Shown: positions 2,803-53,090 of the stretch, piece after piece
How positions within the stretch are numbered: the stretch's first letter is position 1
How the letters are laid out: each line of letters starts with the position of its first letter
DNA from: an uncultured Clostridia bacterium
GTDB lineage: Bacteria > Bacillota > Clostridia > UBA1381
Direction of reading: 5' to 3'
Length of the DNA stretch: 62,386 nucleotides
Assembly: GCA_934463455.1 (NCBI GenBank)
Contig: CAKSJU010000001.1
Coordinates: 1-62,386, forward strand
Made by a program: the position numbers and the translations under genes
The notes under the pieces: model-generated
Database searches by the model: none
What the model was told of the DNA's origin: nothing
The model's input: only the letters and a program-made list of their open reading frames with translations

Positions 2803-3624
2803 ATGAACGTGGAAGATAAAAGCTTTAGTCTCGGCGGTATCAAGCCGTTTGATTTTATGATAAAATATTCAAAGATGAACAAGTATAATCACACCGACGG
2901 AATAGACGCACATACGCACAGCGAATGTGAAATTTATATTAATTTGACGGGCGATATAGCATTCATGGTTGAGGACAATATTTACCAGGTTAAAAGAGGT
3001 AATGCAATAATAACGAGACCTAATGAATGGCATCATTGTATTTATAACAGCGATGCGGAGCAGCGGCTTTTCTGGATTTTGTTTTCATCGGACGGAAACG
3101 AAGCTTTTTTGGATAAGTTTTTCAAGAGAAAAAACGGAGAGAAAAATCTGATTGTGCTTTCGCAGGAAAAAAGTGAAGAGCTGATTGATTTATGTTATAA
3201 GCTGCTGGATAAAAAAAAGAGTGATATTAAAAGATATATGTACTTTTTTGAGCTTCTCGGATATTTGGAGGACAGTGAAGCGTCGGTGGCTTCGGATAAT
3301 TTGTTAGGTGCTGATGTTGAGCTTGCAATAGAGTACATAAACCACAATATGAGCCGAAATGTAAGTATAAAGGAGGCTGCCGCACACGCATTTGTGAGCG
3401 TAAAAACATTGGAAAGGCATTTTATAAAATGTCTTAACATGTCACCGGCGGAGTACATAAGGTACAAACGTCTTGTTCAGAGTGTTGAAATGCTCAGAGA
3501 GGGGAAGAGCGTTACCGAAGCGGCAATGGAGACGGGATTTTGCGATACTTCACATTTTATATATTCTTTTAAAAAGCATTTCAAAATGACACCGCTGGAG
3601 TATAAAAAGAAAGCAATAAAATAA
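2803..3624 (+). CDS. AraC-family transcriptional regulator (cupin sensor + double HTH)
   Basis: 273 aa. The C-terminus ..VKTLERHFIKCLNMSPAEYIRYKRL..ETGFCDTSHFIYSFKKHFKMTPLEYKK is typical of AraC HTH domains. The in-frame GTG at 2809 is better spaced from GGAGG (2797-2801). Confidence 0.85.
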   Translation: MNVEDKSFSLGGIKPFDFMIKYSKMNKYNHTDGIDAHTHSECEIYINLTGDIAFMVEDNIYQVKRGNAIITRPNEWHHCIYNSDAEQRLFWILFSSDGNEAFLDKFFKRKNGEKNLIVLSQEKSEELIDLCYKLLDKKKSDIKRYMYFFELLGYLEDSEASVASDNLLGADVELAIEYINHNMSRNVSIKEAAAHAFVSVKTLERHFIKCLNMSPAEYIRYKRLVQSVEMLREGKSVTEAAMETGFCDTSHFIYSFKKHFKMTPLEYKKKAIK

Positions 3625-3657
3625 TGGGCTGTTAAAAAGGTTAATAACAGCCCATTA
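3625..3657. terminator. Bidirectional hairpin between convergent genes
   Basis: ATGGGCTGTTA-aaaagg-TTAATAACAGCCCAT lies between the AraC stop and the transketolase stop. Confidence 0.6.
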
Positions 3658-3671
3658 GTCTTTAGAGGTAT

Positions 3672-4601
3672 TTATTTTAAAGCAACAGCTTCTTTTGCTT
3701 TAGCTGCGATATTTTCGGCAGTAAGTCCGTATGCTTTCAAAAGCTCGGCAGGTGTGCCGGATGCTCCGAAACGGTCGGTGCCGACAATTTTTACCGGTAC
3801 CGGTTTTGCAGCGGCAACAACTTCGCATACCGCACTTCCGAGACCGCCCATTATATAATGTTCTTCGGCGGTAACGATTGCTCCGGTTTCTTCTGCGGCT
3901 TTTGCGATTATTTCCGAATCAATCGGTTTGATTGTATGGATGTTGATAACCCTTGCGTCTATGCCGTCGGCTTTTAAAAGCTCTTTGGCTTTGAGTGCTT
4001 CGCCTACCATAAGTCCGGTAGCTATTATTGTTACATCCTTGCCGTCCGCAAGTGTTACGCCTTTTCCGAGTTCGAATTTATAATCTTCAGAATTTACGTC
4101 ATCGACAGCAAGTCTCCCGAAGCGCATGTATACGGGACCGTCATGGTCAATTGCCGCTTTTACGCATGCCATAGCTTCGATGTCATCGGCAGGGTTTAAT
4201 ATAACCATGTTGGGAATTGTTCTCATTAAGCCTATGTCTTCGAGGCATTGATGAGTTGCTCCGTCTTCGCCGACAGAAATTCCGGCATGTGTTGCACCGA
4301 TTTTTACATTGAGATTGGGATAAGCTATTGAATTGCGTATTTGTTCGAATGCTCTTCCTGCCGCAAACATTGCAAAGCTTGAAGCAAATGCGATTTTACC
4401 GGCAGCGGCAAGCCCTGCGGCAACGCTCATCATATTTCCCTCTGCAATTCCGCAGTTTATAAATCTTTCGGGGTATACCTTTTTGAACATTTCTGTTTTT
4501 GTTGATTTTGAAAGGTCGGCGTCAAGCACGACTATTCTTTCATCGGCACCGAATTTTGCCAGTGCCGCACCGTAGGATTCTCTTGTAGCTTTTCTTGCCA
4601 T
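3672..4601 (-). CDS. Transketolase, C-terminal subunit (split transketolase)
   Basis: 309 aa, containing ..FINCGIAEGNMMSVAAGLA.. and ..GEDGATHQCLEDIGLMR... Its start overlaps the stop of the upstream subunit (TAATG at 4601). Confidence 0.9.
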   Translation of the reverse strand: MARKATRESYGAALAKFGADERIVVLDADLSKSTKTEMFKKVYPERFINCGIAEGNMMSVAAGLAAAGKIAFASSFAMFAAGRAFEQIRNSIAYPNLNVKIGATHAGISVGEDGATHQCLEDIGLMRTIPNMVILNPADDIEAMACVKAAIDHDGPVYMRFGRLAVDDVNSEDYKFELGKGVTLADGKDVTIIATGLMVGEALKAKELLKADGIDARVINIHTIKPIDSEIIAKAAEETGAIVTAEEHYIMGGLGSAVCEVVAAAKPVPVKIVGTDRFGASGTPAELLKAYGLTAENIAAKAKEAVALK

Positions 4602-5458
4602 TATAACGCCGCCTCCTCTTTTGAAATTAATTCATCAAGCTCTTTTATCGCTGTATTGTACTGTTCTTCGTTCGGAGCAGCACCGTGCCAGCCCGCTTGA
4701 TTTTCCATATATGATACGTTTTTGCCTTTTATTGATTTCATAATTACAACAGTCGGTTTACCTTTGGTTGCTTTTGCTTCGTTCACAGCACTTTCAAGCG
4801 AATTGAAGTCGTGAGCGTCCGCCAAAATAACATGCCATCCGAAAGCACGGAATTTTTCGTCAATCGGAGTCGGATTCATAACGTCTTTTATATTACCGTC
4901 TATCTGCAAACCATTGTTATCAACAAAGGCAGTCAGGTTGTCCAGCTTATAGTGAGCGGCAAACATCGCCTGTTCCCAGACTTGTCCCTCTTCAAGCTCA
5001 CCGTCGCCGAGTGCTGCATATACTCTGTAGTCTTTTTTATCAAGCTTTGCAGCCAATGCCATACCTCCGGCAGCGGAAATCCCCTGACCGAGCGAGCCTG
5101 TTGACATGTCTACACCCGGAACTTTTTTCATTTCGGGATGCCCCTGAAGAATGCTTCCGTAGTGACGAAAAGTAGGAATTAAATCGGTGCTGAAATATCC
5201 TCTTTCAGCCAATACTCCGTAAAGCGCCGGTGCGGTATGTCCCTTTGAAAGAACAAATCTGTCGCGGTTTTCGGCTTTCGGATTTTTTGGGTCTATGTTC
5301 ATTACATCAAAATATAAGTAAGCGAGCAAATCGGCAATTGAAAGTGAGCCGCCGGGATGACCCGACTTTGCACTGTACACAGCCGTAAGAGCATGCTTTC
5401 TTACTTTGTTTCCAATGATAGAAAGCTCTGTTTGTCTTTTTTTCTCCATTGTATTCAA
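4601..5458 (-). CDS. Transketolase, N-terminal (TPP-binding) subunit
   Basis: 285 aa, containing ..SGHPGGSLSIADLLAYLY..RDRFVLSKGHTAPALY..GDGELEEGQVWE... Confidence 0.9.
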   Translation of the reverse strand: MNTMEKKRQTELSIIGNKVRKHALTAVYSAKSGHPGGSLSIADLLAYLYFDVMNIDPKNPKAENRDRFVLSKGHTAPALYGVLAERGYFSTDLIPTFRHYGSILQGHPEMKKVPGVDMSTGSLGQGISAAGGMALAAKLDKKDYRVYAALGDGELEEGQVWEQAMFAAHYKLDNLTAFVDNNGLQIDGNIKDVMNPTPIDEKFRAFGWHVILADAHDFNSLESAVNEAKATKGKPTVVIMKSIKGKNVSYMENQAGWHGAAPNEEQYNTAIKELDELISKEEAAL

Positions 5459-44343: not shown

Positions 44344-44890
44344 TTAATCATACAATCCCGCTCTATCATTTATGACGAGCTGCTTTAAGTCGCTGTCGGT
44401 CAAATGCAGACAGTTCTCATCGCCTTTTAATATTCCTTTATTATCGTATTTCGCCGTCATTGTCTATATATAAAAGCTCTGCGCCGTGACCGAATACCGA
44501 AATATCTTTACCAAGCTGTGTATTAATTGTCTGCTCTGCGCTGTCGGCGAATGTATTGTTCACAAATCCATATTCGCTTATTACGGCTTTTTTGAATTTA
44601 TCATACATAGCGTCCACATATTCTACAGGCTGCCCCGCTGCCTTTAAAGACTATGATTTCAGAATGTACATATTTGTGAATGTTTTATCTATTCCCATGG
44701 CAACAAACGCATGATTTGACTTGTTCCCGCCAAAGTCTACGCCGATATTTATGCATGTCAGCTTCGGCACATCCTCTTTTTTGATAATATACTTTTTCGG
44801 GTCGTTTGCAAACATCGGATATATAAGCCCCTCGGCAACACACCGTTCGCCTAAGATGTCGCGGCGATAAAACACACTTCCGACAGTATA
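44344..44890 (-). pseudogene. Remnant of a phage terminase large subunit (C-terminal nuclease part only)
   Basis: ..VFYRRDILGERCVAEGLIYP..INIGVDFGGNKSNHAFVAMGID.., then an in-frame TAG (44651-44653), then still-coherent ..AAGQPVEYVDAMYDKFKK..FADSAEQT.., then a further frameshift. The N-terminal ATPase half is absent. Confidence 0.6.
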
Positions 44891-45006
44891 TTTTATTTTA
44901 AAACTGATGTTTCTGTTACATTTTTTTGCAAATACAACAAATTTTATAAAATCACATAAATATTTATGTTTAAAATAACAAAAATTAAAAAATATATAAG
45001 AAAGTA

Positions 45007-45035
45007 TTGACAAAAACGATTAGTTATGCTAAACT
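45007..45035 (+). promoter_or_regulatory. feo operon promoter
   Basis: TTGACA (45007-45012), 17 nt, TAAACT (45030-45035). Confidence 0.6.
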
Positions 45036-45097
45036 AACTCATGAAAGTTAGCGAAAGCTAACTGTATATATTGTGTTTGGGTTAGCACAATCTAACC
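45021..45097. promoter_or_regulatory. Three DtxR/IdeR-like inverted repeats (candidate metalloregulator operators)
   Basis: TAGTTATGCTAAACTAACT (45021-45039, overlapping the -10), AGTTAGCGAAAGCTAACT (45046-45063) and GGTTAGCACAATCTAACC (45080-45097). All contain GTTAG-N-CTAAC, as in the DtxR consensus TTAGGTTAGCCTAACCTAA. Confidence 0.55.
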
Positions 45098-45115
45098 GGA
45101 ATGGAGGTCAGAAAA

Positions 45116-45328
45116 ATGATGCCGCTCAGCTTAGCGAATGTGGGAGAAAATAATATCATTAAAAAAATCGGCGGTTTGCCGGAGGTAAAAAAACATCTTG
45201 AAAATCTGGGATTTGTCGTTGGCGGAAATGTACAAGTTGTCAGCACACTCAGCGGAAATGTCATTGTAAATGTCAAGGAAGCGAGAGTTGCCATAAGTGA
45301 AGAAATGGCAAGAAAGATTTATATTTAA
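45116..45328 (+). CDS. feoA: FeoA-family protein (copy 1)
   Basis: 70 aa SH3-like FeoA (..LSLANVGENNIIKKIGG..LENLGFVVGGNVQVVS..). ATG 45116 is 8 nt after GGAGG. Confidence 0.8.
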   Translation: MMPLSLANVGENNIIKKIGGLPEVKKHLENLGFVVGGNVQVVSTLSGNVIVNVKEARVAISEEMARKIYI

Positions 45329-45387
45329 AAAGTTAAATAATGCTTCGAAAAATGCCGGGCGTTTGTCGGAGTATAAAAATTTATATC

Positions 45388-45416
45388 AGTTAATTGTAAA
45401 ATTTGCAATTAACTAA
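45388..45416. repeat. AT-rich palindromic element, copy E (centre-deleted variant)
   Basis: AGTTAATTGTAAAATTTGCAATTAACTAA, between feoA copy 1 and copy 2. Confidence 0.7.
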
Positions 45417-45446
45417 AAAAATCTATATTTATGGGAGGAAGAAAGA

Positions 45447-45668
45447 ATGACAACATTGAAAGAAGCTAAAATCGGCGATACCGTGACGGTTGTTAAGCTG
45501 CACGGAGAAGGTGCGGTAAAGCGGAGACTTATGGATATGGGTATAACAAAGGGCGTATTGGTATACATAAGAAAAGTTGCTCCGCTCGGCGATCCGGTTG
45601 AAGTTACGGTAAGAGGCTATGAGCTTTCTTTAAGAAGAGCAGATGCCGAAATGATAGAAGTACAATAA
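45447..45668 (+). CDS. feoA: FeoA-family protein (copy 2)
   Basis: 73 aa, containing ..LKEAKIGDTVTVVKL.GEGAVKRRLMDMGITKG.. Confidence 0.85.
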   Translation: MTTLKEAKIGDTVTVVKLHGEGAVKRRLMDMGITKGVLVYIRKVAPLGDPVEVTVRGYELSLRRADAEMIEVQ

Positions 45669-45703
45669 TTAATATTTTATAAGCGGGAAAGAGAGGAAGA
45701 AGT

Positions 45704-48208
45704 ATGAATATCAGAATTGCCCTTGCAGGTAATCCGAACTGCGGTAAAACCACATTATTTAACGCATTGACCGGCTCAAATCAGTTTGTAGGAAACTGGC
45801 CGGGCGTTACTGTTGAAAAAAAGGAAGGAAAACTTAAAAAGCATGACGGCGTAATTATAACCGACCTTCCGGGTATTTATTCACTGTCTCCGTATACTTT
45901 GGAGGAAGTTGTTGCAAGAAATTACCTTATCGGTGAAAGACCTGATGCGGTGCTTAACATTATCGACGGTACAAACCTTGAGAGAAACTTATATCTTACA
46001 ACTCAGCTTACAGAGCTTGGCATACCGGTTGTAATTGCAATCAACATGATTGACGTTGTAAGGAAAAACGGCGATAAGATTAATATTGCGGAGCTGTCGA
46101 GAGAACTCGGATGCAAAATTGTTGAAATATCAGCATTAAAAGGCGACGGAGTTATGCAGGCGGCTGAGGAAGCGATAAAAGCGGCACAAAACGGAAAAAC
46201 CGTTCCGATGCACACTTTCAGCGGAGCCGTGGAGCATGCGATAGCACATATCGAAGAAGCTGTTCTTCACAATATGCCGGAGGACGAACAAAGATGGTAT
46301 GCTATAAAAATCTTTGAACGCGATGAAAAGGTTATAGAAAAGCTGGATATTAAACCGGAGGTCATGAAGCATATCGAAGCCGATATTAAAGCGGCTGAGG
46401 AGGAGCTTGATGATGACGCCGAAAGTATTATCACAAATGAAAGATACATATACATTGCGGAAATAATCAAAAGCTGCTACAAAAAGAAAAATGCGGGACA
46501 GCTTTCGAATTCGGATAAAATTGACCGAATTGTTACAAACAGATGGCTCGGACTTCCGATTTTTGCGGTTGTTATGTTCTTGGTTTACTATATCTCAATG
46601 GTTACAATCGGCTCAATGGCAACCGATTGGGCAAATGACGGTCTGTTCGGTGACGGATGGCATTTGTTCGGAATAGGATCTGCCGAGTACGGAGAAGTTT
46701 CCGAGGAATTCGGCGGAGCGGCTGAGGTTGTGAACGGATATATCGAATATGCCGCAGGCAAAGGTGTTGACACCGAGGCTGTCACAGAAGCACTTGATAC
46801 CGAATCGGACAGCTTTGATGCAGCCGCAGCAAAGTCTGCTTTGACGGAATTTGCCGATGAAGCAAAGACTTTGGGCGATGCAACTTACACAGTTGTTGAT
46901 GAAGAGACAATGGCAGATGAAGAGGTTACATCAACATACGATGACTTAACCGAAGCAATTGCAACATATGAAAAATATGATTGTACAGAGCCGGACCCTG
47001 CCGAATACGGAGTTTGGGTACCCGGTGTACCGGTACTTGTCGGAGATGCTTTGGAAAAGGCAAATTGTGCCGAATGGCTTTCGGGCTTGGTTTTGGACGG
47101 TATTGTTGCCGGTGTCGGAGCTGTTTTGGGATTTGTACCTCAAATGCTGGTATTGTTCCTGCTTCTGGCATTCCTGGAGGCTTGCGGATATATGTCAAGA
47201 ATTGCGTTCGTACTTGACCGTGTGTTCAGAAAGTTCGGACTTTCGGGAAAATCATTCATTCCTATGCTTATAGGTACAGGCTGCGGTGTTCCGGGTATTA
47301 TGGCTTCGAGAACGATAGAAAATGACCGTGACCGCAAAATGACTATTATGACGACAACATTTATCCCCTGCGGAGCAAAGGTTCCGTTTATCGCAATGAT
47401 TGCGGGTGCTATATTCGGAGGAAGTGCTTGGGTATCAACTTCTGCTTACTTCATAGGAATGGCAGCAATTGTAATTTCGGGAATTATGCTTAAAAAGACT
47501 GCTATGTTTGCAGGTGACCCGGCTCCGTTCGTTATGGAGCTGCCGGCATACCATATGCCTACTCTCTTGAATGTATTGCGCAGCATGTGGGAACGCGGTT
47601 GGTCATTCATTAAAAAAGCGGGTACAATCATTTTGCTTTCTACAATACTTGTATGGTTTACATCATATTTCGGATTTGTAGGCGGAAAGTTTACAATGCT
47701 TACTGATGAACAGCTTGATATGAGTATACTTGCTGTAGTCGGAAATGCTATAGCGTGGATATTCAAGCCTCTCGGCTGGGGTACATGGCAGGCAGCGGTT
47801 GCATCGATTACCGGTCTTGTTGCAAAGGAAAATATTGTCGGAACAATGGGTATACTCTACGGCGGCGGAGACGGCACCGTTTATGCAAATCTGGCACAGG
47901 CATTTACAGGCATTACGGGATATTCATTCTTGGTATTTAACCTGCTTTGCGCACCGTGCTTTGCGGCAATCGGAGCTATTAAACGTGAAATGAATAATGC
48001 AAAATGGACATGGTTTGCGATTGGTTATCAATGCTTGTTTGCTTATGCTGTAGCTTTGGTTATTAACCAAATCGGAAATGCGTTTACGGGAAACGTAAAT
48101 GTAATAGGCATTATTGCTGCGGTATTGGTAATTGCGGGCATAATATATATGCTGTTCAAGCCCTATAAGGAAGCAAATACACTTAAGGCGAACGTTAAAG
48201 TAAAGTAA
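45704..48208 (+). CDS. feoB: Ferrous iron transporter FeoB (with a long acidic extracytoplasmic insert)
   Basis: N-terminal G domain IALAGNPNCGKTTLFN..DLPG..NMID, followed by a polytopic membrane domain. An acidic insertion of about 120 aa follows the first TM segment. Confidence 0.95.
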   Translation: MNIRIALAGNPNCGKTTLFNALTGSNQFVGNWPGVTVEKKEGKLKKHDGVIITDLPGIYSLSPYTLEEVVARNYLIGERPDAVLNIIDGTNLERNLYLTTQLTELGIPVVIAINMIDVVRKNGDKINIAELSRELGCKIVEISALKGDGVMQAAEEAIKAAQNGKTVPMHTFSGAVEHAIAHIEEAVLHNMPEDEQRWYAIKIFERDEKVIEKLDIKPEVMKHIEADIKAAEEELDDDAESIITNERYIYIAEIIKSCYKKKNAGQLSNSDKIDRIVTNRWLGLPIFAVVMFLVYYISMVTIGSMATDWANDGLFGDGWHLFGIGSAEYGEVSEEFGGAAEVVNGYIEYAAGKGVDTEAVTEALDTESDSFDAAAAKSALTEFADEAKTLGDATYTVVDEETMADEEVTSTYDDLTEAIATYEKYDCTEPDPAEYGVWVPGVPVLVGDALEKANCAEWLSGLVLDGIVAGVGAVLGFVPQMLVLFLLLAFLEACGYMSRIAFVLDRVFRKFGLSGKSFIPMLIGTGCGVPGIMASRTIENDRDRKMTIMTTTFIPCGAKVPFIAMIAGAIFGGSAWVSTSAYFIGMAAIVISGIMLKKTAMFAGDPAPFVMELPAYHMPTLLNVLRSMWERGWSFIKKAGTIILLSTILVWFTSYFGFVGGKFTMLTDEQLDMSILAVVGNAIAWIFKPLGWGTWQAAVASITGLVAKENIVGTMGILYGGGDGTVYANLAQAFTGITGYSFLVFNLLCAPCFAAIGAIKREMNNAKWTWFAIGYQCLFAYAVALVINQIGNAFTGNVNVIGIIAAVLVIAGIIYMLFKPYKEANTLKANVKVK

Positions 48209-48399: not shown

Positions 48400-48588
48400 A
48401 TGAGTTGGTTATTAGATAATATAGGAACAATTGTAGTATTGGCTGTATTGATTGCCATCGTCGCGCTTATTATCCGGCATATCAGAAAGGATAAAGCTGC
48501 GGGAAAATCCTCCTGCGGCTGCGGCTGCGCCAATTGTGCGCTTCACGGAAAATGTCACGGCACGAAGAAAGAGCAGATAACGAAATGA
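48400..48588 (+). CDS. FeoB-associated Cys-rich membrane peptide
   Basis: 62 aa from ATG 48400 (RBS AAAGGAGG), with one TM segment followed by ..SSCGCGCANCALHGKCHG... Confidence 0.7.
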   Translation: MSWLLDNIGTIVVLAVLIAIVALIIRHIRKDKAAGKSSCGCGCANCALHGKCHGTKKEQITK

Positions 48589-48671: not shown

Positions 48672-48853
48672 GATGGGATGTGAAAAAGGCCGAAGCTTTT
48701 TTAATTTGTAGGAAATTGCGTAAAACGCAATGACGGAAAATCAAAAATGCTACCTTATTCCTATGCCCGCAGGCGGAGCTTTTATCAAAAGCTTTTTTAC
48801 TATCCCATCAGGCGCATATAAATAACTGTAGATTTAAAGAAAGGATGTTAGTT

Positions 48854-49087
48854 ATGAAAATTTTGGATTTGGTAAAAAATGAAAAAGTATTGTGCTTTGT
48901 GGGCGGAGTTGTTGCAGCAACCTACGGAGTAAAGGCGTTAAAGAGCGAAAAAGCAAGAAAAGCTTGTGTTTCGGGATTGGCAAAATGTATTAAATTGCAG
49001 AATGATGCCCAGGAAACTTTTAAAAATATGAAAGAAGAAGCGCAGGACATTTGCTACGATGCGAATAAAGAAGCTAATAACGAATAA
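48854..49087 (+). CDS. Small conserved-looking protein preceding the P-type ATPase (DUF6110-like by recollection)
   Basis: 77 aa, MKILDLVKNEKVLCFVGGVVAATYGVKALKSEKARKA.., with one amphipathic/TM segment. It sits 17 nt upstream of the ATPase. Confidence 0.45.
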   Translation: MKILDLVKNEKVLCFVGGVVAATYGVKALKSEKARKACVSGLAKCIKLQNDAQETFKNMKEEAQDICYDANKEANNE

Positions 49088-49104
49088 CAAAGAGGGCACC
49101 GAAA

Positions 49105-51201
49105 ATGAAATTCAGAATAGTTTACGATTCTCCGGGCAGATTACGCTTGAGATGCGGTGCGGGCACTTTTAAAAAAGAACAGGAAGCAAGCCTGGTAAAA
49201 GCTGTGACAGGCATAGACGGAGTCTGTTCGGCGGAGGTATCGAGCATAAACGGTGGAATTTTGATATATTATAAGCCGGATATAAGAAAATTTATTCTTG
49301 ATACAGTCGGGCAAATTAATGCCGCGTCACTGCCAAGCGGAGAGTTATCACAAATTACGGTAATAGACGAGGAATTTAAGTGTGATTTTAAAAAAATAGT
49401 TGGAAAAGCATTGCTTATGAAGCTTTTTGTGCCATCTTTTATAAAGCTTCCGCTGACAATATTGAGAGCTGTGCCGTTTGTAAAAGAAGGACTTAAAAGC
49501 TTGTCGGAGGGAAAGCTGAATGTCAGTGTTTTGGATGCTGTTTCAATTTCGGCTTCCGTAATAAGCGGCTCGCCGTCTACGGCATCTTCTGTGATGACCC
49601 TTTTAAACATTTCTTCTTTGCTTGAAGGATATACAAAGAAAAAGGCTAAAACAGCACTTTCGGACAGCCTTAAGATTAATATAGACAAGGTTTGGAAAGT
49701 GACCGAAAAAGGTGAAGAAAGCGTTCCTCTTTCGCAGATTAAAATCGGTGATGTTGTAAGAGTCAGAAGCGGAAGCATGATTCCGACAGACGGTGTCGTA
49801 AGGAGCGGCTCTGCGGGAGTAAACGAAGCATCTATGACGGGTGAATCGGAACTCAGATTTAAATCGGAGGGAATAAGCGTTTACGCCGGAACCGTCATAG
49901 AGGAGGGATGTCTTGACATAGAAGCGGTCAAGCTTCCGGATGACAGCAGAATACATAACATTATTGAATTGATTGATAATTCCGAGGATTTAAAATCAAC
50001 AGTTCAGACAAAGGCGGAAAAGTTTGCCGACAGCCTGGTACCGTTCAGCTTTTTTTCAAGCGTGGCGGCATATCTGCTTACAGGTAATATAACAAAGGCT
50101 TTGTCGGTGCTCATGGTTGATTATTCATGTGCAATAAAATTATCAACTCCGATTTGTGTTATTTCGGCAATGAAAGAAGCAACAAACTATGATATTATGA
50201 TAAAAGGCGGCAGATATTTGGAAAATTACGCTTTTGCGGATACCATATTGTTTGATAAAACCGGAACACTTACCGTTTCATGCCCTAATTTGGCAAAAAT
50301 TGAGGCATTGGAAGGATATAATGAAGATACTATATTGCGGATTGCAGCATGTCTTGAAGAGCATTTTCCGCACAGTGTTGCAAAAGCTATTGTACATGCA
50401 GCCGCTGCCCGCGGCATTGAGCATACGGAAGAGCATGCCGAAGTGGAATATATTGTTGCCCACGGAATTGCATCATTTTTAAAAGGTGAAAGAGTTTTGA
50501 TAGGAAGTACGCATTTTATATTCGATGATGAGCATATTGCGATTGACGAAAAACAAGCCGAACTGATAAAAAAACTCGGTGAAAAATATTCTATGGTTTA
50601 TTTGGCAATAGGCGGAAAATTATGCGGAATTTTGTGCATAGAAGACCCGATAAGAGAGGACGCCGAAAAAGTAATTGCCAAGCTAAAAGCAGAGGGTATG
50701 CGCAATATTGTAATGATAACCGGAGACGGTGAAAGTACAGCGGCAAATGTATGCAGTGAATTGGGAATAGAAAAGTATTATGCGACGGTACTTCCCGAGG
50801 ACAAGCTTAATATAGTTAATTCTTATAAAGAGAACAATCATAAGGTTGTAATGGTAGGCGACGGTATAAACGATTCCCCGGCGCTTGCGGCTGCGGATGT
50901 TTCGATTGCAATGAAGGATGCTTCGGATATTGCGCGTGAAGTGGCGGATATTACGCTGCTGTCCTCCGACCTTGAAAAATTGATTGTTTTGAGAGATTTG
51001 AGTGAAAAGCTGTTTAAACGTATTCACTCTAACTATCGGTTTATTACATTATTTAACAGCGGGCTGCTGCTTATGGGATTGTGCGGAGTTATTTCTCCTG
51101 TATCAAGTGCGCTTTTGCACAATTTATCGACCATGGGCATATGTGCCGGAAGTATGAGACCTTTTATTTCGCGGGAGGTGGAAGATGCTGCTTTCGACTA
51201 A
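49105..51201 (+). CDS. P1B-type (heavy-metal) ATPase with SCA transmembrane motif and Cys-less HMA-like N-domain
   Basis: DKTGTLT, TGD, GDGINDSPAL. The TM metal-site position reads VDYSCAIKLSTP, where CopA/ZntA have CPC. The N-terminal ferredoxin-like domain has no CxxC. Confidence 0.85.
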   Translation: MKFRIVYDSPGRLRLRCGAGTFKKEQEASLVKAVTGIDGVCSAEVSSINGGILIYYKPDIRKFILDTVGQINAASLPSGELSQITVIDEEFKCDFKKIVGKALLMKLFVPSFIKLPLTILRAVPFVKEGLKSLSEGKLNVSVLDAVSISASVISGSPSTASSVMTLLNISSLLEGYTKKKAKTALSDSLKINIDKVWKVTEKGEESVPLSQIKIGDVVRVRSGSMIPTDGVVRSGSAGVNEASMTGESELRFKSEGISVYAGTVIEEGCLDIEAVKLPDDSRIHNIIELIDNSEDLKSTVQTKAEKFADSLVPFSFFSSVAAYLLTGNITKALSVLMVDYSCAIKLSTPICVISAMKEATNYDIMIKGGRYLENYAFADTILFDKTGTLTVSCPNLAKIEALEGYNEDTILRIAACLEEHFPHSVAKAIVHAAAARGIEHTEEHAEVEYIVAHGIASFLKGERVLIGSTHFIFDDEHIAIDEKQAELIKKLGEKYSMVYLAIGGKLCGILCIEDPIREDAEKVIAKLKAEGMRNIVMITGDGESTAANVCSELGIEKYYATVLPEDKLNIVNSYKENNHKVVMVGDGINDSPALAAADVSIAMKDASDIAREVADITLLSSDLEKLIVLRDLSEKLFKRIHSNYRFITLFNSGLLLMGLCGVISPVSSALLHNLSTMGICAGSMRPFISREVEDAAFD

Positions 51202-51583
51202 AAAGAAATATATGTTTACAATATATGAGCTTGCCTCAAACGGCAGCACTGTAAGAAGTATTGATATATCAAAATTGCTCGGAGTAAAAAAGGCAAGTGT
51301 TTCGCTTATGCTTCCGAATTTAATAAAAGAAAATCTTATTGAACGTACAGAAAACGGAAATATAGCTTTGACAAAAGAAGGAGCGGTTTTTGCAGGTGAA
51401 TTGTATGCGAAATATCTGACTGTTTACAATTTTTTTAAAGAAGATTTAAAAAGCGACGGTGAAAACGCGCGCAGGGACGCAATTTGCTGCCTGTGCTCGA
51501 TTTCTGATGATAATGCCGAAAGAATGACTGAATATATGCTTGAGTATCGGCATTGTACCTCCGGAGCAGGGCGTACAGATTGA
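51185..51583 (+). CDS. DtxR/MntR-family metal-dependent transcriptional repressor (HTH + dimerisation domain, no SH3)
   Basis: 132 aa, containing ..YMFTIYELASNGSTVRSIDISKLLGVKKASVSLMLPNLIKENLIE.. It overlaps the ATPase stop by 17 nt. Confidence 0.7.
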   Translation: MLLSTKKKYMFTIYELASNGSTVRSIDISKLLGVKKASVSLMLPNLIKENLIERTENGNIALTKEGAVFAGELYAKYLTVYNFFKEDLKSDGENARRDAICCLCSISDDNAERMTEYMLEYRHCTSGAGRTD

Positions 51584-51634
51584 AAAATCTGTATGCCTGC
51601 CTTTAAAGGTATTACAAAGAAAGGATTTGATAAA

Positions 51635-51925
51635 ATGAGTGTAGTTATTGTAGGCGGGCATGACCGCATGCAATGCAAATATAAGGAAATATGTAAAAAA
51701 TACGGATGTAAATGCAAGGTTTTTACGCAGTGTCCGGCAGATTTCAGAAATCAGATAGGCTCTCCCGATATGGTTGTGGTATTTACAGGGACCGTAGCGC
51801 ATAAAATGGTATCTATAGCGTCAAAACAGGCGGAAAAAACCGGCGCATATATAAGACATTGCAATTCCTCCAGCGGAAATGCGTTAAACGAAGCACTGAA
51901 AGAATATTTTACGGTAGAAACTTAA
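51635..51925 (+). CDS. DUF2325-like small protein
   Basis: 96 aa, MSVVIVGGHDRM...DMVVVFTGTVAHKMV... RBS AAAGAAAGGA. Confidence 0.5.
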   Translation: MSVVIVGGHDRMQCKYKEICKKYGCKCKVFTQCPADFRNQIGSPDMVVVFTGTVAHKMVSIASKQAEKTGAYIRHCNSSSGNALNEALKEYFTVET

Positions 51926-51937
51926 ATTTTTTTGGAG

Positions 51938-51961
51938 TATAGTTAGTCTAAACTAACTATA
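51938..51961. promoter_or_regulatory. Perfect DtxR-like palindrome TATAGTTAGT-CTAA-ACTAACTATA
   Basis: 10-bp perfect arms. Its core TAGTTAGTCTAAACTAACT matches the feo-promoter box TAGTTATGCTAAACTAACT at 17 of 19 positions. Confidence 0.55.
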
Positions 51962-51978: not shown

Positions 51979-52542
51979 ATGGTTGAAAATATAATTGAAA
52001 ATATGATTGCAAAGCATTGTGCACCTGCTCTGGCAGGGATAAAACCGAGCAATTTAATGGCGATTGAAAAAAATAAAACAACTGATATAAAAGAGAATAT
52101 AATAAGGCTCAATAGGGAACTGAATAATAAGGATATTTATATAGATATTTTATGCGAATGCAGCAAGCGGATTTTACTGCTGGTATATCGCAGAAAAAAA
52201 CTCGAGGAATATCTTCGCGGTAACGAAATAAAGCTGTTGCTCGACAAATACGGATATAAAAAATGCAATACTCTCGAGAGCATGATAAAAAGATTGAAAA
52301 CAAGATTAAAAAATTCCGAGTTTCCGCATGAAATAGGAGCATTTTTAGGTTATCCCATAGATGATATATACGGATTTATAAATCATAAAAACAGCGGATG
52401 TCTTTTTGCGGGGGAATGGCGCGTTTACAAAAATGTCAGTGAAGCGAAAGAGCTTTTTAAAAGATATAAAGCCTGCCGTGCGGCACTTGTGAAAAGAATG
52501 ATGCAGGGAAAAACGCTTGCACAGATTTTTTGCGCGGCATAA
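51979..52542 (+). CDS. DUF3793-like protein
   Basis: 187 aa, containing ..KHCAPALAGIKPSNL.. and ..FPHEIGAFLGYP..DI.GF.., as I recall for DUF3793. Confidence 0.5.
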   Translation: MVENIIENMIAKHCAPALAGIKPSNLMAIEKNKTTDIKENIIRLNRELNNKDIYIDILCECSKRILLLVYRRKKLEEYLRGNEIKLLLDKYGYKKCNTLESMIKRLKTRLKNSEFPHEIGAFLGYPIDDIYGFINHKNSGCLFAGEWRVYKNVSEAKELFKRYKACRAALVKRMMQGKTLAQIFCAA

Positions 52543-52593
52543 AAACTACATAAACAATATTGTCAAAAGGCAATTTGTTAAAAAAAATACTTT

Positions 52594-52633
52594 AGAGTTT
52601 TAATTGTGAAACTTTAGTTTTACAATTAGCTGA
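52594..52633. repeat. AT-rich palindromic element, copy F
   Basis: AGAGTTTTAATTGTGAAAC-TTTA-GTTTTACAATTAGCTGA, upstream of flavodoxin. Confidence 0.9.
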
Positions 52634-52661
52634 TCATTATTTTAAAAGGAGGTTTTACAAT

Positions 52662-53090
52662 ATGAGTAAAACAGCAATTATTTATTGGAGCGGTACAGGC
52701 AACACAGAAGCAATGGCAGCGGCGGTACTGGAGGGGGCAAAAGAAGTTAACTCAGATGTGGGATTTTTCACTGTTTCGGAAATTACTTCGGATAAAGCGG
52801 CTGAATATGACACTCTTATATTAGGCTGCCCCGCAATGGGCTCTGAGGTTTTGGAAGAAAGCGAATTTGAGCCGTTCTTTACAGAGCTTGAATCTAAATT
52901 ATCCGGCAAAAAAGTTGCGCTTTTCGGCTCATACGGCTGGGGAGACGGCGAATGGATGAGAGATTGGGAAGAAAGAGTTATAGCGGCAGGCGCAACGCTT
53001 GCAGGCGGCGAGGGAGTTATCGCAAATGAAGCTCCCGACGATGAAGCGTGCGAAAAATGCAAGGAATTGGGCAAAACAGCAGCGCAATAA
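52662..53090 (+). CDS. Short-chain flavodoxin
   Basis: 142 aa, MSKTAIIYWSGTGNTEAMA.. (FMN phosphate loop) and ..LFGSYGWGDGEWM... Confidence 0.9.
   Translation: MSKTAIIYWSGTGNTEAMAAAVLEGAKEVNSDVGFFTVSEITSDKAAEYDTLILGCPAMGSEVLEESEFEPFFTELESKLSGKKVALFGSYGWGDGEWMRDWEERVIAAGATLAGGEGVIANEAPDDEACEKCKELGKTAAQ

Follow-up and report, generated by a model that had tools for sequence, protein, structure and literature searches.

Three inverted repeats at the feo promoter of this gut Clostridia bacterium most likely shut off its ferrous-iron importer by way of a small DtxR-type iron sensor, and that sensor is probably encoded elsewhere in the genome, not by the odd regulator gene 6 kb downstream. The promoter lies in the window, by which we mean the whole 62,386-nucleotide stretch of DNA analysed, in a genome assembly (labelled G000) of 2.25 Mb in 196 contigs, with 40% G+C and 99% completeness. 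We consider it likely that the repeats are operators, one dimer each, of an Fe2+-loaded two-domain repressor of the DtxR/MntR family, the best candidate being a protein encoded on contig C62. This operator reading is drawn from what was observed across Clostridia, namely the enrichment of the boxes, their position over -10 elements or start sites, their conservation and their linkage to a canonical regulator gene, together with an IdeR-like geometry and the lack of an evident rival iron regulator. A switch of this kind is itself familiar; what is particular here is the clean three-box array and a ferrosome-linked paralogue of the regulator that lacks the classical metal ligands.

Iron control on the Fur model of Clostridium and C. 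difficile is the usual assumption for the gut's dominant Clostridia (Oscillospiraceae, Lachnospiraceae and uncultured relatives). The data presented here indicate that many gut Clostridia use a small DtxR-type sensor instead of Fur, with a box that is easily searched for and is thus a ready means to annotate the iron regulons of these organisms. They also add DUF2325, DUF3793 and a Cys-rich/HMA membrane protein to the iron-starvation response, and they single out the ligand-less paralogue of the ferrosome cluster as a puzzle of its own. In the literature available to us, a search for a DtxR-feo-flavodoxin regulon of Clostridia, or for DUF3793, found no description.

Three boxes at the feo promoter

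The earlier note had described a TTGACA-17-TAAACT promoter overlapped and followed by three inverted repeats, and both the coordinates and the sequences of these elements agree with our own reading (Table 1). The promoter scores 10/12, and TAAACT (45030-35) has TG in front of it and forms an extended -10. The same layout was found again in the feoA upstream regions of many relatives. The operon under its control contains two feoA genes and feoB, and the gene for a FeoB-associated Cys-rich membrane protein that follows is probably the last member of the feo unit.

The three repeats, which we call O1, O2 and O3, are of one 18-bp type, RGTTAG-N6-CTAACY. O1 can be read in two ways with one mismatch each, either as GTTAT-N6-CTAAC (45023-38) or as an N10 form beginning with ATTAG. 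In the second reading it is a 20-bp composite of the GTTAG-N10-CTAAC type with degenerate inner repeats. Two overlapping dimers on O1, in the style of the classical box, seem doubtful, as the inner repeats lack the key positions; the conserved N10 spacing does not fit a single standard dimer. O2 would span about +4 to +21 of the feo transcript and O3 about +38 to +55, just ahead of the ribosome-binding site, ending 5 nt before the Shine-Dalgarno sequence. From centre to centre, O1 and O2 are 24 bp apart and O2 and O3 34 bp. Because these spacings set neighbouring dimers on different helical faces, the geometry does not predict the strong cooperativity that the earlier note had expected, although the conserved phasing of the boxes suggests some higher-order arrangement. 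The spacer between the two feoA genes holds a further palindrome, AGTTAATTG-N9-CAATTAACT, at 45388-45414; it has GTTAA arms at a different spacing and is not of the operator type.

Table 1. Coordinates of the promoter, boxes and genes discussed; positions are those of the window unless a contig is named.
Feature	Position	Strand	Details
feo promoter	45007..45035	+	-35 TTGACA (45007-12), 17-nt spacer, extended -10 TGCTAAACT
O1	45022-39		AGTTATGCTAAACTAACT = AGTTAT-GCTAAA-CTAACT; one arm mismatch; weight matrix 13.3 bits
O1, composite form	45019..45039		aTTAG-TTATGCTAAA-CTAAC(T); encloses -10
O2	45046-63		AGTTAGCGAAAGCTAACT = AGTTAG-CGAAAG-CTAACT; perfect box; weight matrix 22.3 bits
O3	45080-97		GGTTAGCACAATCTAACC = GGTTAG-CACAAT-CTAACC; weight matrix 21.5 bits
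Shine-Dalgarno sequence	45103-07		GGAGG; first feoA ATG at 45116
feoA-feoA-feoB, controlled operon	45116..48208	+	feoA 45116-45328; feoA 45447-45668; feoB 45704-48208; Pfam FeoA, FeoB_N, FeoB_Cyto, Gate, FeoB_C
FeoB-associated Cys-rich membrane protein	48400..48588	+	Pfam PF12669
fez (ferrosome-type) genes	48845..51201	+	FezA-like DUF6110 48845-49087; P1B-6 ATPase FezB 49105-51201
Cys-rich DtxR-like paralogue in fez cluster	51185..51583	+	PF01325, 34 bits
Fourth box	51938..51961		TATAGTTAG-TCTAAA-CTAACTATA; 24.8 bits; overlaps weak -10
DUF3793 and flavodoxin genes	51979..53090	+	DUF3793 51979-52542; flavodoxin 52662-53090; Pfam
Small membrane protein with FeoB-associated-like Cys-rich stretch and C-terminal HMA domain	G000:C8:31250-31630 (L001:6250-6629)	-	

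The boxes mark three promoters of an iron-limitation gene set

Within the 62-kb window, GTTAG-N6-CTAAC with at most one mismatch has four matches, against 1.19 expected. The contrast is sharper across the genome, where the two half-sites are rare (266 copies of GTTAG and 278 of CTAAC in 2.25 Mb), so that only ~0.03 exact pairs at this spacing are expected by chance; four are present. All other spacings from N0 to N30 yield at most one pair each, and GTTAG-N6-CTAAC is the most enriched of all 1024 pentamer-N6-palindromes in the genome. Each of the four exact boxes lies at a promoter, two at feo, one before the DUF3793-flavodoxin genes (51942) and one on contig C8. Using a weight matrix made from 50 distinct boxes of relatives and a threshold of 12 bits, we found only five sites in the whole genome (O1, O2, O3, 51938-61 and C8:31577-31600), belonging to these three promoters. 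A genome search to define the regulon had been proposed in the earlier note; when run, it recovered feo, DUF3793-flavodoxin and the Cys-rich/HMA gene.

The box at 51942 sits in the 53-nt spacer ahead of the DUF3793 and flavodoxin genes, while the C8 box begins 4 nt past the -10 of a promoter with a 12/12 match to consensus, TTGACA-17-TATAAT, ahead of the gene for the small Cys-rich/HMA membrane protein. At all three promoters a box thus covers the -10 or the start of transcription, as the site of a repressor would. The left arm of O1 lies upstream of the transcript, and reading it must therefore take place on DNA. The two feoA genes, feoB, the FeoB-associated Cys-rich protein, DUF3793 and flavodoxin are an iron-limitation gene set, of which DUF3793 and flavodoxin are the iron-sparing members. 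Homologues of the C8 protein come after feoB in Enterocloster citroniae (L158) and in one other relative (G016, L076).

A second flavour of operator, GTTCG-N6-CGAAC, has no copy in this genome. Several short words are scarce: CTAG is nearly absent (8–26 copies of CTAG-containing 5-mers against 3000–4900 expected), GATC and GGCC words are depleted ~10-fold over the whole genome, and TTAG/CTAA words 4–9-fold, a pattern that suggests strong restriction or repair avoidance.

Conservation of the boxes in relatives

A pattern search of 40 relatives from four families of the order found the box in 37, a count that overstates independence since the genomes are kin. When 30 loci from four families were chosen by motif alone, their neighbours were mostly feoA/feoB or (DUF2325)-DUF3793-flavodoxin. 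Boxes occur ahead of feoAB and of DUF3793-flavodoxin in Oscillospiraceae, Lachnospiraceae and other Clostridia, often 24–25 and 34–35 bp apart. DtxR-type boxes on feo, which had been put forward as a noteworthy wiring, are by this survey the common wiring across many Clostridia.

The 50 distinct boxes give the consensus RGTTAG-YNNNNR-CTAACY, with constant arms and variable spacers that show a weak Y...R preference beside the arms. Aligned feoA upstream regions share one order of elements: TTGACA, then a box round TGnTAAACT that is usually GTTAG-N10-CTAAC, then an N6 box ~24–25 bp downstream of the first and often a third box 34–35 bp beyond. The GTTAG-N10-CTAAC form round TGnTAAACT is kept in nine loci (L022, L023, L025, L036, L041, L043, L048, L104 and L159). 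Over all loci the box-to-box distance has two modes, at 20–29 bp and 33–35 bp, with 34 bp the commonest value, and the 34–35 bp spacing recurs in G002, G003, G016, G022, G023, G024, L117, L156 and L159. The full O1-O2-O3 triple is found again in G024, in an uncultured rabbit-gut Clostridia MAG (L117), in Cuneatibacter sp. NSJ-177 (L156) and in the human-gut contigs L159-161, and L159 has a box identical to O2 at the same place. At the second promoter, the position of the DUF3793-flavodoxin box is shared by L010, L013, L016, L027, L033, L104, L147, L150-152 and L156. Ten loci (L036, L041, L046, L048, L089, L108, L110, L117, L156 and L158) have an extra box in the short feoA2-feoB spacer; the corresponding spacer of the window (45669-45703) has none.

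A canonical DtxR/MntR-family protein encoded on contig C62

The genome contains two full DtxR-family genes, the one at 51185-51583 in the window and another at G000:C62:10826-11197, which encodes 124 amino acids. The C62 protein matches both PF01325 (35.7 bits) and PF02742 (50.1 bits) above the cut-offs, and it has orthologues in 40 of the 41 genomes searched, at 46–81% identity. In about 12 of 40 relatives, the C62-type gene and feoA(A)B are divergent neighbours, or a box lies in the spacer upstream of the regulator gene. A wider scan, with one genome per species, returned more than 590 relatives. Among the best 80 loci, ~30 place the regulator beside feoAB and/or DUF2325-DUF3793-flavodoxin with boxes between, for example in Enterocloster citroniae, Cuneatibacter, Flavonifractor, Faecalispora jeddahensis, Intestinimonas, Hominicoprocola and Congzhengia. 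Such adjacency is not expected by chance where a ~2-Mb genome has one to nine exact boxes, though the genomes are kin. In the present genome the C62 gene is unlinked to feo, and the weight matrix found no box ahead of it or ahead of the fez genes.

DtxR Met10, Cys102, Glu105 and His106 correspond in the C62 protein to N9, which some orthologues replace by Met, and to C100, E103 and H104. A comparison of 22 orthologues shows C100, E103 and H104 to be invariant, together with E12 and H78, the counterparts of the MntR ligands E11 and H77. The ancillary ligands E83 and H98, judged by eye, are not conserved. In an ungapped phmmer match of residues 29–67 to IdeR 30–68, T36, P38 and S39 fall at IdeR Ser37, Pro39 and Thr40, and P38 and S39 are nearly invariant among orthologues; the position of IdeR Gln43 is Val. 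There is no C-terminal SH3-like domain, and the 124 residues correspond to the two-domain architecture of MntR. The protein scores best against the Mn-sensing MntR but lies under every NCBIfam cut-off, so the case for iron rests on the ligand pattern and the target genes, which together point to Fe2+ over Mn2+.

Variants of the recognition helix (SVSVAMK vs. SVSRAMS) showed no clear pattern of covariation with variants of the box. One relative (G037) has boxes at feo and no regulator that we could find; its feo contig is only 2.3 kb long and ends just upstream of feoA. In another (G024), the canonical gene (L078:6023-6384, G024:C11) is in two pieces that overlap in different frames, which could be a frameshift or an assembly error; this genome retains a triple feo operator and an intact Cys-rich paralogue.

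Alternative readings of the boxes

The earlier note had named a Fur box as a possible alternative, and none was found near the feo promoter: within 44800-45200, TGATAATNATTATCA-like sequences had no match with three or fewer mismatches. The only two Fur-family genes in the genome are G000:C2:45304-45648 and G000:C38:17302-17640. One, whose best score is against clostridial PerR, adjoins a rubrerythrin gene, the other adjoins a ZnuA-family (zinc-uptake) gene, and neither reaches the NCBIfam cut-off for Fur. By their sequences and neighbours they look like PerR-like and Zur-like proteins, and the 99% complete genome appears to have no clear iron-sensing Fur. With neither a Fur box near feo nor a clear Fur gene, Fur control of feo was rejected. 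Mobile, MITE-like palindromes were rejected too, as in different families the boxes hold the same place at orthologous promoters and are conserved in their arms alone. That the boxes belong to an unrelated transcription factor, and are linked to DtxR genes merely through a shared iron theme, is very improbable. The canonical gene does lie away from any box in about two thirds of genomes, but the half-site and phasing agree with the one-dimer site of IdeR, the regulator's own upstream spacer contains boxes in several families, and a search of the loci for a few gene families turned up no other regulator gene that recurred beside boxes. We give even less credence to the idea that O2 and O3 are not DNA operators but RNA hairpins of the feo 5' leader with an effect on stability, attenuation or ribosome access. 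The leader does fold as two hairpins (z-score -3.4), and that of O2 has a GAAA tetraloop and a terminator-like score. Such folding is expected of any palindrome, however, and between boxes it is the loops that differ, the arms being fixed in sequence and free of compensatory changes. Full transcription is not possible for O1, the 51942 box or the C8 box, each of which straddles a -10 or a start site; boxes also occur in divergent spacers beside the regulator gene, and Rfam gave no match at E values up to 1 in 44850-45250.

A closer rival to the C62 protein is the regulator that the earlier note had favoured, the product of 51185-51583, which might bind the three boxes alone or as a second sensor beside the canonical protein; we regard this as unlikely. 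It has a DtxR-type winged helix with a helix-turn-helix stretch near the canonical one (RSIDI..KK-ASVS), its gene always lies within a feo-fez-DUF2325 cluster flanked by boxes, and in G024, with its triple operator, it is the paralogue that is intact and the canonical gene that looks split. Only the N-terminal Pfam domain is recognised, however, with no PF02742 match; Ala occupies the position of IdeR Pro39. In an alignment to SloR/ScaR the ligand positions read K, Y, I, L and C, the first four in place of classical ligands, and an invariant CCxC replaces the E-x-x-E-H motif. The boxes are also far more widespread than the paralogue, which has clear orthologues in only 2 of 40 relatives (G024, 63% identity, and G003, 77%, partial) and forms only 34 clusters in a database of 5.8 billion proteins. 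In G010 the copy at the same position (L027:1860-2240, G010:C30) has five in-frame stops and is a pseudogene, yet fezB, DUF2325 and DUF3793 are intact and the boxes persist. We conclude from these sequence comparisons that the paralogue is unlikely to be a general reader of the boxes. The earlier proposal of DtxR-type control of feo is in this way upheld in one part and revised in another: the boxes are DtxR-type and mark an iron regulon, and the regulator is more likely to be the C62 protein than the product of 51185-51583.

Proposed mechanism

We therefore describe the switch with the C62 protein as its reader. This protein combines a winged helix bearing the T-x-P-S recognition signature with DtxR-like residues at its metal site (Asn/Met, Cys, Glu, His). 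When iron is sufficient, a dimer on O1 would enclose the extended -10 and exclude RNA polymerase, a dimer on O2 would block initiation or escape, and one on O3, ahead of the ribosome-binding site, would be a roadblock. Under iron limitation the apo-protein would come off the DNA, allowing transcription of feoA-feoA-feoB and likewise of DUF3793-flavodoxin and the Cys-rich/HMA gene, where single boxes overlap the -10 or the transcription start. Binding, the identity of the metal and the sign of regulation are what we infer in this scheme. Most likely the C62-type protein fills the place that Fur usually holds in Firmicutes, and the feo boxes function as single-dimer versions of the actinobacterial iron box, with a two-domain reader.

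Comparison with known systems

The half-site likeness to the IdeR/DtxR box that the earlier note had pointed out is real, and it includes the phasing with which a single IdeR dimer reads its site (PMC8464063). The iron box of Actinobacteria (TTAGGTTAGSCTAACCTAA) has the TTAG/CTAA pentamer half-sites in common with the present boxes. [quoted passage not shown] Repeats 1 and 3 of that box form TTAGG-N4-SCTAA (TTAGG-TTAG-SCTAA), and the present box, TTAGY-N4-RCTAA, has the same phasing. Further likenesses, here predicted, are a repressor of iron uptake with a Ser/Thr-x-Pro-Ser/Thr recognition helix and a Cys-Glu-His site, acting on boxes over the -10 or start. The two systems differ in repeat number, which is two, presumably for one dimer, in O2, O3 and the boxes at 51942 and on C8, and four, for two dimers, in the IdeR box. 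The boxes described here also have an extra conserved outer G/C, R rather than C at pentamer position 1, and phased arrays of up to three. The protein, for its part, is without the SH3-like third domain, and IdeR Gln43 is replaced by Val or Arg.

The closest solved relative of the C62 protein is MntR of Bacillus subtilis (PDB 1on1; E value 6e-15). The two share a two-domain size of ~125–142 amino acids, and MntR H77, E102 and H103 are conserved in the C62 protein. In contrast, MntR D8 is replaced by Asn/Met and E99 by Cys, as at the DtxR M10 and C102 positions, the targets are feo and flavodoxin instead of Mn transporters, and the operator sequence differs. Fur of Clostridium acetobutylicum and Clostridioides difficile (PMC6311696) has the same feo and flavodoxin targets and the same logic of an iron-loaded repressor with boxes at the promoter, but it belongs to another protein family and reads another box, and in the genome studied here feo lacks a Fur box and no clear Fur is encoded.

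The fez genes of the window begin a cluster (48845-51925) in which FezA-like and FezB are followed by the translationally coupled paralogue and then DUF2325, an order shared by the human-gut contigs L159-161. Wherever the paralogue was found, the gene order was constant: feoA-feoA-feoB-Cys-rich peptide-small proteins-P-type ATPase-[paralogue]-DUF2325. The ATPase has the motifs RLRLR, DYSCA and HNLST, and a GxxxG protein (DUF6110) precedes it, features by which we assign the paralogue to a ferrosome cluster. Described fez clusters share the R-rich N-terminus (RxRxR), DYSCA, HNxxT and the small upstream GxxxG protein, and their frequent neighbours include FeoA, FeoB, Fur and DtxR (bioRxiv 10.1101/2020.01.10.902569). 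The cluster described here differs in the ligand-less, Cys-rich DtxR-like gene translationally coupled to fezB and in having no box ahead of the fez genes; nor is there a palindrome upstream of the FezA-like gene that is shared between the window and L159.

Since its helix-turn-helix stretch is near the canonical one, despite the change of Pro to Ala, the paralogue may share the boxes. A specific version of this idea, in which it is a second sensor of the GTTAG boxes through Fe-S cluster or thiol chemistry or through mixed dimers with the canonical protein, seems to us quite unlikely. If this were true, iron storage in ferrosomes would be tied to feo import and to flavodoxin expression, and the three-box array would serve to integrate two regulators. 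In human-gut contigs that have no DUF3793-flavodoxin downstream, a box is retained directly after DUF2325 (L159:8748-8763), and an asparagine synthase gene lies ~170 bp after it.
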